Source: an uncultured Verrucomicrobiota bacterium (GTDB lineage Bacteria > Verrucomicrobiota > Verrucomicrobiia > Limisphaerales > J093). From it: DNA of 64,000 bases. Of this stretch, positions 11,361 to 61,351 are shown piece after piece. Position numbers and translations under genes: made by a program. The stretch is from NCBI GenBank assembly GCA_964568145.1, contig CAZMOZ010000001.1:284731-348730 (forward strand). Reading direction: 5' to 3'. The notes under the pieces are model-generated. The model was not told the origin of the DNA, searched no databases, and was given only the letters and a program-made list of their open reading frames with translations. How positions within the stretch are numbered: position 1 is the first letter of the stretch; the number at the start of each line of letters is the position of its first letter.

Positions 11361-11423
11361 GCCGGAAAACCGGAGTTGGGCAGGCGGGACGCACTGCGCT
11401 ACGGCCAGCTTCGGTTTTCGGGT
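11361..11423. mobile_element. MITE family C copy (63 bp)
   Basis: 17-bp TIRs GCCGGAAAACCGGAGTT / AGCTTCGGTTTTCGGGT, 29-nt interior, TGA on both flanks. Confidence 0.85.
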
Positions 11424-11492
11424 TGAGTTTCTGTCGCGCGAACTGTCGCCCGCAGCAACGCAATCACCCCCCCACCGCTGTTGGCCGCGCAG

Positions 11493-11894
11493 TCACTGGT
11501 GCTTGATGGCTACGGCGACCACGACGCGGCCCTGGACAGTCTGGAGCGAGCGTCCCCACCACGGACCGCTGACGTAAGCGCCCGTGACCTGGGTCTGGTC
11601 ATAAACCACCACCGCCGCGTCGGCACCCAACTTGGCCGCTTCCTGACGCAGCACCGCTTCGATCAGGGCCACGTCCGTGCTTTGGGACGATGGCTCGGCC
11701 CGGACTTCGCCCAGCCGCACGTGCGGCCGCGTCGGCTCAGTGCGCAGAATCTGAACCTGCGCCGGGTCGGAGGGCGGGTACTTCGGCGAACCAACGTCCT
11801 GGGTGTGCGTCGCGCTGACCGACTGGCAGCCGGTCGCCAGAAACAGCAGAGTGACGTTCAAACTGAGGGCGGCGGGCAAGACGGTAATTTTCAC
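11493..11894 (-). CDS. Putative lipoprotein (possible YbjQ-like fold)
   Basis: Lipobox LATGC; HVRLGEV and LRQEAAKLGADAAVVV resemble YbjQ-like lipoproteins. Confidence 0.6.
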   Translation of the reverse strand: MKITVLPAALSLNVTLLFLATGCQSVSATHTQDVGSPKYPPSDPAQVQILRTEPTRPHVRLGEVRAEPSSQSTDVALIEAVLRQEAAKLGADAAVVVYDQTQVTGAYVSGPWWGRSLQTVQGRVVVAVAIKHQ

Positions 11895-12006
11895 ACGGTT
11901 CCTTGCCTGCTGTTTCGATTGTTTCGACTGCGGGTAGTTCCTTGTCAGCGGCCTGTTCGTGCAGCGGCCAATTCAACCGCTCCCTCGATCAAGCCGTAGG
12001 CTGAGC

Positions 12007-12730
12007 TCACGGTGTTTCGTATGCACCGGTTACGGGATTATATTTAGTTTCGGTGATGTGCCGGACGACTTGGGCGGAGATCTGCGTAGCGGTTTGCTTG
12101 ACGTTTTTTTCCAGATCACCTCCCGCCAGGGCAAAGCGTGCGGCGGCGCCCCAAGGGCCCAGGGCCAGCGTCGGCGCCGCGCCGACCTTGTTGCCGCTGC
12201 TGATGTCCGTGCCGATCTCATAGAGCGGCTTGGGCGGTCCTTGCGAGAGGTTGCTCAAAACGGCCACCACCTGCAGATCGGTCGCGCCACGGCCCAGACC
12301 GATGACAGCCCGCTGCAGGCGGTTGCCTTCCTGAACTTGCATAAAGACGCCACGAACCAGCCAGCCGTTGCCCGGCGGCGGTGCGCCGGGCGACAGCCGG
12401 AGCGCTTTGAAACCGGCTTTGGTCAGATCATTCATCAAGGATTTGGCCATCAAGTCCACCAACTGCCGGGCCCGGCTCGCCGGATCCGTGGTGGTTCCGG
12501 ACAGGCGGTCGCCCACGCGGCCGACCGGCCCGTGAGCATGCCTGACTCGTGCTGGATGTTCTGGGCGTCGAATTCGAAGTCGGCCACGTAAATGGTCGCG
12601 GAAGGACTGGCCGTCTTGGCGACGGATGCGCGCTGGCCGCTGGCGTTGTCCGAGGCACAGCCGGCCAGCAGGCAGACGGCGAAGATTGCAAAGGCATGGA
12701 GCAAAAGGCTGCGATTGAAAAACCGCGCGC
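12007..12730 (-). pseudogene. DUF4410-like lipoprotein, frameshifted near 12530
   Basis: 5' part LLAGCASDN...IYVADFEFDAQNIQHESGML in one frame, 3' part GPVGRVGDRLSG...VQEGNRLQRAVIGLGRG in the adjacent frame; one base appears missing; start uncertain. Confidence 0.65.
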
Positions 12731-13219
12731 CGGCTCTAGCGGCCAAGACCAACCCATCGCCCAGCGCCCGCAACCTGTGCCGGGCGGACGAGAAAGAAGT
12801 CCAAGACACGGGCATGGGGCGGCCATGCCGAAATCCTTTGGGGCTCATGGCACGGCAGCTAAGCGTTTGCTGGGCAATTATCAAATCTAAAGTCGCTGCC
12901 TACTGGCGGCTCGGGTACTTGCAGACCTGTGCCCTGGCGGGAATAACGCGTCCGGTCTGCCTTGCTTGCGACAACAAGGGCCGTTGGGCGGGGGCCTGTT
13001 GAGTCGTGGAGCGCGCGGCTTTCACACCGCTTCGGACTGCAGCGGTCAAGCGGGCCGCAATGCACAACCGGTAAAGGTGAGGGGAATTCGTGATGCGGGC
13101 TATCGCGCAGGGGTCCCTTGCTGCGGCGCCTGCGCTCCCCGGCCTCACGTGAACCGTACCGTCCAGGAAAAGGGCAGCAGGGTATGCGGCGCCCCGGCTC
13201 ACCCCGGCCCGCCAGCCCG

Positions 13220-58691: not shown

Positions 58692-58811
58692 GACTGGCAA
58701 TCAGTTGCCCGGCCGGCGGCCGCAGCGGCGCGCAACATCCGGGACACGCTGCGAGTTTGGAACCGCCGCCCCCGCGAAAGCAAGCCGCCACTTCCGATTC
58801 CGGCCCCGCGT

Positions 58812-59000
58812 GGGCGCAACTCACTGTTGTGCCGTTCTGGTCCTGGCCTGGTGGGGCGTGACTCCGTTGAGCCCTGACCTGCCGGGGCTGCGAGCGTCAG
58901 ACTGCGCTTCCCACCGGCGGGGCGCCCGCAGCGCGGTCCAGACGAGGTCGCCTGGACCGCTACGGTCCGCCCACCGCATGCACGAAATCGAGATGTGCCC
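58812..59000. mobile_element. MITE family A copy, short form (189 bp)
   Basis: GGGCGCAACTCACTGTTGTGCCG ... GCACGAAATCGAGATGTGCCC; flanks GCCCCGCGT / GCCCCGTGT. Confidence 0.85.
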
Positions 59001-59137
59001 GCCCCGTGTGGGCTGAATAAGCGCTGGCGACGCTCAGTCGGATTCTCCGTCGCCCAACCCGTGACGACTTGTCTCCGCCGGCGCGCCGACCAACAGCCGG
59101 CCAGACGTTGCCTGGGTACACCGGCGATGGAACGCAC

Positions 59138-61213
59138 ATGCAACCGGTTCTCCGTGCCCGGCCCAGCCCTCGTTGGTCCCGGACCGCCGCTTTGACCACG
59201 GCGGCGGCGGTCGCATTTCCCCTGGCGGCCCATGACAATCCGAACGCCACGGTGCCCGCCTTCCGGGCCTTGAAGGTGGAGGCCCCGCTCAAGGTGGACG
59301 GCGTGCTGGACGAGCCGTTCTGGGAACAATGCGAGGTGACCTCCGGCCTGCTGGACACGCGCTCGAACGCGCCAGCCGCAGACCAAACCCGCGTGCGGGT
59401 GGCCTACACCACGACGCACCTGTACCTCGCGGTCGAGTGCCTCGACAGCGACATGTCGAAATTGCACGCGACCGAACAGCACGAGGACCGGCCCTTTGTC
59501 GGCGACGACTGGGTGGAGATTCATCTGGACCCGCCACACAATCACCGGGGCAAGTACGCGTTCTTCACGAATCCACTCGGCACCCGCGCGGACGCGAACG
59601 AGGGCCCGTCCGGCATCTTCAACTACGGCTGGTCGGCGGACTGGGATTGCGCCGCGAAAATCGTGGCGGACCGTTGGACCTTCGAGATGCGCATCCCGTT
59701 CACGGTCTTCAACTACTTCCGCGCCGACGACGCGACCTGGGGGTTCAACGTGACGCGCATGCAGCGTCGCAACGACGTGACCAGCTTCTGGAGCTACAAC
59801 CCCACCGAGATGTACAAGCCGCGGCATTTCGGGCACCTCACCGGGCTGGCGCTGGCCGACACGGTGTTCGACCGCAACTGGGAGATCACCCCGTACACGA
59901 GCGTGCGGGTGGACTTCAACGGCGACACGGACGTGGTGCTCAAGGCCGGCCTGGACGTGAGTTTCCGTCTCACCCCGGCCGTCACCACCGCCTGGACGCT
60001 GAATCCGGACTTCGGCCACATCGAGGCGGACGACGACACGATCGAGCTGCGCGACACCGAGCGGTTCCTGCCCGAAAAACGCCTGTTCTTCCGCGAGGGC
60101 GAGGAGTTGATGCGGATGCCGCACCGCGTTTACTACAGCCGGCGCATCACCGAGATGGACGCCGCCATGAAGGTGAGCGGCCTGCTGCCGGGCTTCAGCT
60201 TCAATCTCATGGACGTGCAGAGCGATTTCGCGCACGACGGGGATTTCCACGGCAACGCCGCGGTCCTGCGAGTGATGCAGGACGTGGGCGGGCGCTCCTA
60301 CCTGGGGTACTACACGGACGCCTCCCACCTCGACGAGGGGCATTCCTACAACGGCAGCGTGGACGGCTACTTCTTCCTCACGGACGCCTGGCGGGTGCGC
60401 TTCCAGGGCGCGGTGTCCCAGGACGAGCTGGAAAGCGCCTCCCAAGGCATCGCCAAGGACAGCCTGGATTTTCTGGGCGACGCCTCGGTGATCTACAGTC
60501 TCTATCCGTGGGACTTCGCGCTCACGTACACCGGCATCACCGAGCAGTTCAATCCCCTGCTCGGCTACATCCCCCGGCGGGACATCTTCGGTCCGTCCGC
60601 GCTGGCGCAGTACCAGCAGCGGTCCAGCGAGCGCTGGTACAAGCAATTCTTCGCGAGCTACAACCCGCGCTGGTACCTGAACGACGCCGGCGACACCAGC
60701 GTCCGCGATCATTCGCTTTACTCCAGCCTCGTGCTCCGCAATGACGTGGGCTTCCGGCTGGGCTACGACCACGACTACCACTCGCCCTACACCAACCAGC
60801 GCCTCCTGACCGGCCTCGACCTGTGGGCCTCGGACTACTACAAGGCGGTGAACCTGGGCTACGCCACCGGCGAGTTCGAGGAGGTCGCGTACAACGAATT
60901 CATCTGGGGCAAGCGGTTCAAGTTCTGGGAACGACTGCCCATCCGGCACGAGTTTGTGCTACGCTTTGAAGACCAGCCCGACGGCGACTCGGACACCGTC
61001 TGGCTGAACCGTGTGGTCACTGACCTGTACATCACGAAAGACATGTGGGTGAAGGCTTCCATTCAGAACCGCGACTCGGGCTTCCATAACTACAGCATCA
61101 TCTACGGCTGGAGGCTCAAGTACAACACGTACTGGTACGTGGCTTTCAACGACGTCGAGGACGACGAGAGTCCCGGTCGCAGCGTGCTCACCAAGATCAC
61201 CTACACTTTCTGA
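59138..61213 (+). CDS. Secreted CBM9-like domain plus DUF5916-like outer-membrane beta-barrel
   Basis: Signal peptide; VDGVLDEPFW, DWVEIHLDP, WTFEMRIPF, WGFNV; TLNPDFGHIEAD, FLPEKRLFFREG, YYSRRI; C-terminal YTF. Confidence 0.8.
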   Translation: MQPVLRARPSPRWSRTAALTTAAAVAFPLAAHDNPNATVPAFRALKVEAPLKVDGVLDEPFWEQCEVTSGLLDTRSNAPAADQTRVRVAYTTTHLYLAVECLDSDMSKLHATEQHEDRPFVGDDWVEIHLDPPHNHRGKYAFFTNPLGTRADANEGPSGIFNYGWSADWDCAAKIVADRWTFEMRIPFTVFNYFRADDATWGFNVTRMQRRNDVTSFWSYNPTEMYKPRHFGHLTGLALADTVFDRNWEITPYTSVRVDFNGDTDVVLKAGLDVSFRLTPAVTTAWTLNPDFGHIEADDDTIELRDTERFLPEKRLFFREGEELMRMPHRVYYSRRITEMDAAMKVSGLLPGFSFNLMDVQSDFAHDGDFHGNAAVLRVMQDVGGRSYLGYYTDASHLDEGHSYNGSVDGYFFLTDAWRVRFQGAVSQDELESASQGIAKDSLDFLGDASVIYSLYPWDFALTYTGITEQFNPLLGYIPRRDIFGPSALAQYQQRSSERWYKQFFASYNPRWYLNDAGDTSVRDHSLYSSLVLRNDVGFRLGYDHDYHSPYTNQRLLTGLDLWASDYYKAVNLGYATGEFEEVAYNEFIWGKRFKFWERLPIRHEFVLRFEDQPDGDSDTVWLNRVVTDLYITKDMWVKASIQNRDSGFHNYSIIYGWRLKYNTYWYVAFNDVEDDESPGRSVLTKITYTF

Positions 61214-61288
61214 GGGCCTTCGCGGAGTAGCGGTCTGCTTTTGACGGACAGCACGGGCTGCAGTACACCGCACTTGCTACTGAATTTA

Positions 61289-61351
61289 ACCCACTTTCCG
61301 AAATTGGCCGTAACGCAGCGCGTCACGCCTGCCCAACTTCGGCTTTCGGGT
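61289..61351. mobile_element. MITE family C copy (63 bp)
   Basis: ACCCACTTTCCGAAATT / AACTTCGGCTTTCGGGT; interior is the reverse complement of the copy at 11361; TTA/CTA flanks. Confidence 0.8.

Follow-up and report, generated by a model that had tools for sequence, protein, structure and literature searches.

Does a short bacterial repeat with the ends of a transposable element and the centre of a repetitive extragenic palindrome (REP) belong to the one class of repeats, to the other, or to both? The question is raised by a 63-bp element which is present in seven copies in the window, that is, the whole stretch of 64,000 nucleotides analysed here (positions 284,731 to 348,730 of contig CAZMOZ010000001.1), from an uncultured Verrucomicrobiota bacterium. 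REPs and miniature transposable elements with inverted repeats (MITEs) are the two principal kinds of small repeat in bacteria, and they are usually treated as separate. Their spread is thought to be due to unrelated enzymes, HUH tyrosine nucleases for the REPs and DDE transposases for the MITEs, and the dispersal of REPs is poorly understood. The best explanation we can offer, to which we give a probability of roughly 60%, is that the element is a non-autonomous MITE of Verrucomicrobiota that encloses one GTAG REP unit, that it is moved by a DDE transposase, and that its core is tied to the free REPs of the host.

The element consists of 17-bp terminal inverted repeats (TIRs; ACCCGAAAACCGAAGTT and its complement), here called arms, around a 29-nt core. 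An earlier note on this DNA had reported seven copies, at 11361, 26899, 44314, 46537, 49746, 52348 and 61289, with such arms and with 3-nt flanks of the TNA type, and these positions hold; the arm 17-mer, allowing up to three mismatches, occurs 10 times in the window as compared to 0.11 expected. The copy at 49746 is the only one with perfect arms, 17 bp long, or 19 bp if one adjacent base is counted on either side of each arm, and the remaining copies have 1–6 mismatches per arm. The left arm is badly decayed in the copy at 61289. It is also decayed at 52348, and the right arm of that copy has two extra T, so that a covariance model of the family places it at 52348–52412 (65 bp). One isolated arm-like site, at 61681, seems to be a chance match.

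Three types of core, all of 29 nt, were described earlier and are found again. Type A is present in the copies at 11361..11423 (minus strand; GGCC GTAG C, the hairpin and CC on that strand), 44314..44376 (minus strand, with the foot GTGG), 52348..52412 (minus strand, decayed) and, reversed, 61289..61351 (plus strand). Type B is the core of the copy at 26899..26961 (plus strand; C GTAG TGGC GCGGGCG ACCT CGCCCGC TG), and type C that of the copy at 49746..49808 (plus strand; GCCC TTAG C GCCGGAT TCCC ATCCGGC TC). The copy at 46537..46628 (minus strand) is 92 bp long, 29 nt more than the others, and in its 58-nt core a C-like unit comes first and an A-like unit second, arranged head to tail in the same orientation. 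The hairpin that the earlier note saw beside a GTAG or TTAG foot could be observed in every core of the window: it has 7–8 bp, is preceded by GTAG, GTGG, GTAA or TTAG, and lies inside the long hairpin formed by the arms.

Once oriented foot-first, 34 distinct cores of the family align without a single gap. Their layout is four nucleotides (GNNC), the tetranucleotide, one nucleotide, a 7-bp stem, a 4-nt loop, the returning stem and two nucleotides. The foot is usually GTAG, GTGA, GTGG or GTAA, and in some cores TTAG, GGAG or GCAG. Conservation reaches 90% or more in the 34 copies at the core columns C21, G22, C28, G30, C36, C41 and C44, and alignment columns 10–12 and 52–54 are invariant. In the inner stem two-sided changes were found at 6 of the 7 pairs, with 90% of the cells paired, for instance GCAGACA/TGTCTGC as compared to GCCGGCA/TGCCGGC and ACAGACA/TGTCTGT. 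The covariation score is 0.171; shuffled alignments gave 0.077, with none of 500 reaching the observed value, and slid partners gave at most 0.074. RNAalifold independently yields the inner helix and the inner arms. Folded as DNA, the element forms a 17–18-bp stem, a 7-nt bulge with the GTAG-like foot, and the inner hairpin, with energies of −27 to −29 kcal/mol and z around −9 for the best-preserved copies (−27.1 kcal/mol and z = −8.7 for the copy at 49746).

The idea that the structure is kept and the sequence is not is thus supported by the covariation. The companion idea, that the cores are unrelated and interchangeable cassettes, disagrees with the gap-free alignment, the conserved columns and the compensatory changes; judged from the alignment, types A and C and the further types in related contigs and metagenome-assembled genomes (MAGs) are diverged versions of one module. 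The same three features favour the explanation that this is an ordinary MITE with subfamilies. The core would then be the loop region, its hairpin kept for transposition or stability, the types would come from divergence of master copies, the free REPs would be decayed MITEs or a case of convergence, and there would be neither exchange of cores nor a link to the REP-associated tyrosine transposases (RAYTs). We see this as possible, if doubtful, and return to it below with the free REPs.

The family is not restricted to the window, since members sharing the arms occur in Verrucomicrobiota MAGs and in lake metagenome contigs. Species-representative genomes were scanned with the 11-nt inner arms and any core of 1–61 nt. 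Among the matches listed, most were terminator-like hairpins of low-GC bacteria with loops of 1–27 nt, and the true members were separated from these by their outer arms (acccga...tcgggt). The listed matches with outer arms all came from MAGs that are labelled Verrucomicrobia or unclassified, with 56–65% G+C, and their cores were of 29 nt save two, of 23 and 38 nt. A scan of metagenomes with 15-nt arms gave 38 contigs, of which 32 had cores of 29 nt, four had cores of 28 nt, and one each had a core of 27 and of 15 nt. When the window and all family-bearing loci were pooled, and arms with at most three mismatches were paired at any distance, the core was 29 nt long in 47 of the 56 paired copies and 28 nt in four; single copies had 27, 23, 15 and 38 nt, and the only core of 58 nt was the window's own at 46537. 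The interior lengths had been predicted to peak at multiples of 29 nt, and they do not. The core length is 29 nt with decay, the single 58-nt core is unique, and there is no 29n series. Neither such a series nor an empty frame was found with search patterns that cover cores from 1 to 61 nt, and both results speak for the ordinary MITE.

Some other hairpins were met in these scans. Three family-like frames with non-standard cores (L141 520–568, L055 3824–3880 and L020 2266–2337) include a 15-nt perfect mini-hairpin without GTAG, a shortened core of 23 nt, and a core of 38 nt made of two short hairpins without feet. The unrelated low-GC genomes of Bacillus (L026, L039, L061, L083, L089) and of Aquiflexum/Cognataquiflexum (L053, L072, L094) contain conserved and repeated terminator-like hairpins with the same AAACCGAAGTT/AACTTCGGTTT stem. 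In Bacillus bingmayongensis the whole hairpin unit of 50 nt is found at several loci, so it forms a separate small repeat family. A scan of viral contigs for the arm gave coincidences in coding sequence only.

The flanks of the copies give a first sign of mobility. Identical 3-nt flanks were found in 24 of 39 non-redundant copies, as compared to a permutation mean of 5.8 and a maximum of 14 in 10,000 permutations, and no copy of the 39 has identical flanks of 4 or 5 nt. In the window the three duplications of the earlier note are exact: TGA at 11358–11360 and 11424–11426 for the copy at 11361, TGA/TGA for 26899 and TTA/TTA for 44314. The flanks of the other four copies have a mismatch at one position or are degenerate (TTA/TGA at 46537, CAA/TAA at 49746, TTA/CTA at 61289). 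Among the triplets that are duplicated, TCA, TGA, TAA and TTA prevail and TCG, TTG and TAC occur a few times, and TNA makes up 70% of all flanks. The target appears as T|TNA|A, a 5-bp palindrome, 14 of the 24 duplicated sites being preceded by T (−1) and 17 followed by A (+1). The middle base is constant within a copy but variable between copies, which implies that the triplet is a duplication made by a staggered cut and not a part of the element. As the duplicated middle base varies among the copies, a site-specific recombinase acting at a fixed crossover core could also be rejected.

These flanks bear on the possibility that the whole 63 bp is a unit similar to a REPIN or a bacterial interspersed mosaic element (BIME), moved on single-stranded DNA by a RAYT, an HUH tyrosine nuclease, with the arms as a linker module rather than TIRs. 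The GTAG foot with its hairpin, the folding of the whole unit into a long REPIN-like hairpin, the free REP doublets in the same genomes, and the failure to find a DDE partner (in about 385 kb, and by tblastn) would all agree with it. However, HUH elements of the IS200/IS605 type do not duplicate their target (PMC2817692), and the 3-nt duplications with their variable middle base are therefore difficult to reconcile with such a mechanism. Furthermore, the arms are not REPs, so that a single REP between arms falls outside the definition of a REPIN as two inverted REPs, and a RAYT was not detected in the sampled sequence. We think that this explanation is very improbable.

Comparison with relatives gives a second sign of mobility. 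In two relatives, in which a 228-aa protein is 80% and 70% identical, the syntenic 20 kb lacks all five copies found in this part of the window. For the copy at 52348, homology to the nearer relative ends exactly at 52347, where the left edge of the element abuts the stop codon of the 228-aa gene, and this TGA stop is kept in both relatives, which are without the element. In the source metagenomes the unitigs over the right arm and the core next to it add up to a depth about 70 times that of single-copy sequence. The family is multi-copy, lineage-specific, dispersed and non-coding, with seven copies in 64 kb and further copies in several MAGs and metagenomes. Because of the TNA duplication, the T|TNA|A target and the absence of copies from the relatives, the element is a mobile MITE with a signature of the cut-and-paste (DDE) type.

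Where the copies are situated could suggest something else, namely that they are a structured RNA or a bidirectional terminator or stabiliser, kept by the host 3' of genes, and that the mobility is historical. Most copies lie just past gene ends or between convergent genes. The copy at 11361 sits between a tRNA-Thr and the 3' end of an open reading frame (ORF) on the minus strand, the one at 46537 is 7 nt downstream of the stop of ORF 46636–47097 (minus strand), the one at 52348 comes directly after the TGA stop of the 228-aa gene, and the one at 61289 is 75 nt downstream of a DUF5916 gene. A TTTT follows the inner stem on both strands, and many low-GC genomes use the AAACCGAAGTT...AACTTCGGTTT stem in a terminator-like hairpin. 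On the other hand, a simple terminator scan flags none of the copies, and in Rfam, at permissive as well as gathering thresholds, the matches were confined to tRNAs and unspecific hairpin noise. The copy at 49746 is found in the divergent promoter region of helicase and ECF sigma genes, the copy at 44314 within the 3' part of a called 293-aa ORF (44225–45106, minus strand), and the relatives have no copies at the same gene ends. A role of this kind as the main explanation seems quite unlikely to us.

The 293-aa ORF reads through the MITE and has no Pfam match, and nothing of equal length corresponds to it in the nearest relative. Either the call is false or too long, or the insertion changed the C-terminus of a gene. 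The ORF calls are mechanical and overrun likely gene starts elsewhere too. The TTG start of the helicase ORF, at 49745, abuts the MITE, and the uppS ORF (52441–53523) has 360 aa as compared to 245 aa in metagenome annotations; the true starts of both genes are probably further inside the ORFs.

The free REPs speak for more than an ordinary MITE. The window is rich in free GTAG-tagged hairpins, in tandem and inverted clusters. Three of them, at 21640..21662 (plus strand), 33561–33583 (minus strand) and 55700–55722 (minus strand), were found by motif match, lack arms and belong to the family of the type B core: they differ from its motif, GTAGTGGCNNNGGCGACCTCGCC, by 0–1 mismatch in 20 specified bases, where no match is expected. 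By manual count, 25 of the 29 nucleotides of the type B core are identical to the free REP at 55700 (86%), whereas 15 of 29 are identical to type A (52%), and the GTAG of type B lies 3 nt nearer the arm although the core length is still exactly 29 nt. This copy is present once in the source metagenome, where one unbranched single-copy unitig crosses it; type C has at least two copies in the source metagenomes.

The two-unit core has a free counterpart as well. At 57467..57516 (plus strand) a free tandem pair consists of a C-like REP (GCCGGGCT GGGA AGCCCGGC TCTAC) and directly after it, at 57492–57511, an A-like REP (GGCAGGCA CAGA TGCCTGCC GCTGC), which is the order and orientation of the 46537 core. 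Another free C-like REP (TAG C GCCGGCT TCCA GCCCGGC) lies at 14664..14685 (plus strand), and there are further ones around 9760–9812. In the flanks of the family-bearing loci the covariance model found no extra full copies; in lake contigs it gave matches to model positions 19–45 alone, and these are free REPs, some of them in inverted doublets. On one contig (L104) a free REP at about 4742–4766 is identical over 25 nt to a MITE core 2 kb away. Free REPs thus occur as singles, tandems and inverted doublets in genomes that also hold framed cores. Abundant GTAG REPs have also been described in another member of the Verrucomicrobia, Opitutus terrae (PMC3733652). By these similarities the core is one GTAG-type REP unit of the host's own free families.

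For the ordinary MITE these observations are less easy to accommodate. Type B is closer to the free REPs than to type A and has kept its length with a shifted GTAG, the free REPs are longer-stemmed, stand in tandem and inverted arrays and have no traceable outer arms, and the two-unit copy consists of two different types ordered like the free tandem pair. In its favour are the flanks of the free REP of L104, which are faintly like the inner arms (CCGA... and AACTCCCGG), as in a decayed MITE, and the result that a RAYT was not found by the motif scan or in 20 ORFs of the window.

The free REPs also form dense BIME-like clusters in the window, at 9760–9815, 14664–14778, 15528–15830, 21600–21760, 33442–33597, 39406–39466, 46247–46446, 55453–55736, 57336–57525, 58820–58977 and 61505–61662. 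Examples of the REPs in these clusters are GTAG CCGGCCCCTG GCT CAGGGGCCGG and GTAG T GGCCCAGGCG ACCT CGCCTGGGCC. Several REP families and other repeated modules build composite intergenic repeats of 150–300 bp, which recur at 62–90% identity.

Which enzyme could move the element? ISfinder lists TNA for the bacterial IS1031 group. Target site duplications of 3 bp, including TNA, typify the IS5/PIF-Harbinger (PHIS) superfamily (PMC4482050), and by analogy the duplication points to this superfamily. The searches that the earlier note had proposed, for an IS5-family transposase with these ends and for RAYT genes, gave neither. A crude HUH/Y motif scan in six frames of all family-bearing loci found no RAYT, and neither did Pfam scans of 20 window ORFs; a single-copy gene could still lie elsewhere in the genome, beyond the sequence sampled, and the link to a RAYT is conjectural. 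With tblastn an IS630-family transposase gave nothing, and the consensus, compared by BLAST with a plasmid collection, met nothing beyond chance matches of its core in coding DNA, a Rhizobium match having been checked.

The one similarity of the arms to a known insertion sequence (IS) is to an end of the IS630 family. It was reached via an alphaproteobacterial MITE-like family that shares the search 11-mer (L008 1640–1712, L047 7773–7845, L071 5630–5710 and L009 3400–3478; also L142 2500–3600). This family has the form CTAG-TGTCC...AAACCGAAGTTCG / CGAACTTCGGTTT...GGACA-CTAG, with cores of 26–30 nt between the 11-mers common to the window family, and its end, over 25 nt, agrees with that of an IS630-family IS on a plasmid of Roseomonas mucosa (NZ_CP147882.1). 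When the arm is compared with the annotated IS end (TAGTGTCCCGAATCCGAAGTTCG for the IS and ACCCGAAAACCGAAGTTG for the window element), 14 of 17 positions agree with one indel. IS630-derived MITEs duplicate TA, and here 3 nt, T-N-A with a variable middle base, are duplicated. The resemblance is a lead and not a sign of membership, since the identity of the 11-mer was built in by the search and IS630 duplicates TA.

Taken together, a DDE transposase acting in trans probably binds the arms at their invariant inner 11–15 bp and cuts with a stagger of 3 nt. Both ends are probably joined by a hairpin or cruciform into which the arms and the central hairpin fold, because 63 bp of duplex DNA is too short to loop. 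Such a fold would fix the spacing of 29 nt, and the GC-rich central hairpin and the fixed spacer would favour it. The core types may then co-evolve with the pool of free REPs or be replaced from it occasionally, type B being the clearest case; alternatively, the free REPs may have been seeded from the MITE. Recombination, template switching or a nuclease that handles REPs are possible routes of replacement.

Several observations weigh against this explanation. No autonomous element was found, as there are no arm pairs at an IS-like distance in about 385 kb of family-bearing sequence, and a later covariance-model search of about 440 kb, able to detect short MITE-like copies only, found no more. 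The Pfam scans of the 20 window ORFs gave no transposase. Conservation is lowest at the two outermost bases of the arms, an unusual feature in DDE ends, and the sole TIR similarity to a known IS is to the IS630 family, which duplicates TA and not TNA. The near-invariance of the arms is partly built in, because most copies outside the window were found by a pattern with fixed inner arms. As regards the proposed check for empty sites, the syntenic 20 kb of the relatives lacks the five copies, but at these loci an empty site could not be aligned to the base, the DNA between the genes having diverged too far in the nearest relatives. Empty sites were also sought in metagenome contigs laid on the window, which were too fragmented and diverged, and in other contigs of the same species, which collapsed as identical. 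Finally, the exchange of cores is indicated by few cases.

The earlier note had offered two alternatives, a DDE-mobilised carrier of REP units or an exchange of cassettes of unit length. The first is supported. The second, as a precise process of unit-length exchange, has a low likelihood, as the singleton of type B, with its exact 29 nt, and the one two-unit copy are all that hint at it. A still closer connection can be imagined, in which the DDE frame and the REP system are coupled in function. A RAYT-type nuclease or templated repair would swap or duplicate the 29-nt slot as a defined unit, the MITE would be a cut-and-paste vehicle seeding new REP families around the genome, and the hairpin would be needed for transposition. 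We regard such a coupling as unlikely; if true, it would be the first cooperation between an HUH-handled and a DDE-mobilised repeat.

As regards the surroundings, the window has 68% G+C and contains housekeeping genes and three tRNAs. Its LepA is 89–91% identical to proteins labelled Verrucomicrobiales or Limisphaerales bacterium, which places the organism in the Verrucomicrobiota, and it is represented solely in freshwater metagenomes. Between 60000 and 64000 the G+C falls to 0.61, and the long ORFs 61778–63019 and 62964–63923 found there have no Pfam match.

A literature search for the arm sequence gave nothing relevant, and searches on Verrucomicrobia MITEs and on REP plus MITE found no description of a REP framed by TIRs, PMC3733652 included. 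The chimeric family of MITE plus REP is real and, it appears, new to the literature. A single REP packaged between DDE-type ends with a clean duplication would offer a testable route for the dispersal of REPs, and the element is a natural system for two questions, how the ends of a 63-bp DNA come together and why a central hairpin is kept by covariation. With it the Verrucomicrobiota, a phylum in which mobile DNA is almost unstudied, gain a repeat family and the T|TNA|A insertion signature. The element breaks short-read assemblies there, as seen from contigs that terminate at its copies.

Like the bacterial MITEs derived from DDE insertion sequences (Correia/NEMIS, RUP, ERIC and Nezha), the window element is short, non-coding, multi-copy and intergenic, with TIRs, a short target duplication and a long hairpin. 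Unlike them it is much smaller, 63 bp, it has a covarying GTAG REP in its centre, and a parent IS was not found in about 385 kb of family-bearing sequence. IS630-derived MITEs duplicate TA, as compared to TNA at T|TNA|A for the window element. The subterminal core of the arm is common to the IS630-family end (CCCGAATCCGAAGTTCG), the alphaproteobacterial MITE of L071 (CCTGAAACCGAAGTTCG) and the window element (CCCGAAAACCGAAGTTG), but the first two differ from it in four extra terminal bases (GTGT), a CTAG site with TA duplication, and non-REP cores of 26–30 nt. The likeness to IS5/PIF-Harbinger is a 3-bp TNA duplication inside a palindromic 5-bp target; the target of the eukaryotic NuwaII of this superfamily is C|TNA|G (PMC4482050), and the window element has T...A as flanking bases instead. 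With the GTAG REPs, BIMEs and REPINs (PMC3733652, PMC2817692, PMC3116915) it shares the GTAG-like foot, a GC-rich stem of 7–8 bp with compensatory changes, and several types residing in the same genome. Contrary to REPs and REPINs, which have neither TIRs of unrelated sequence nor a target duplication, the window element is a single REP in a fixed slot of 29 nt between arms that are not REPs.

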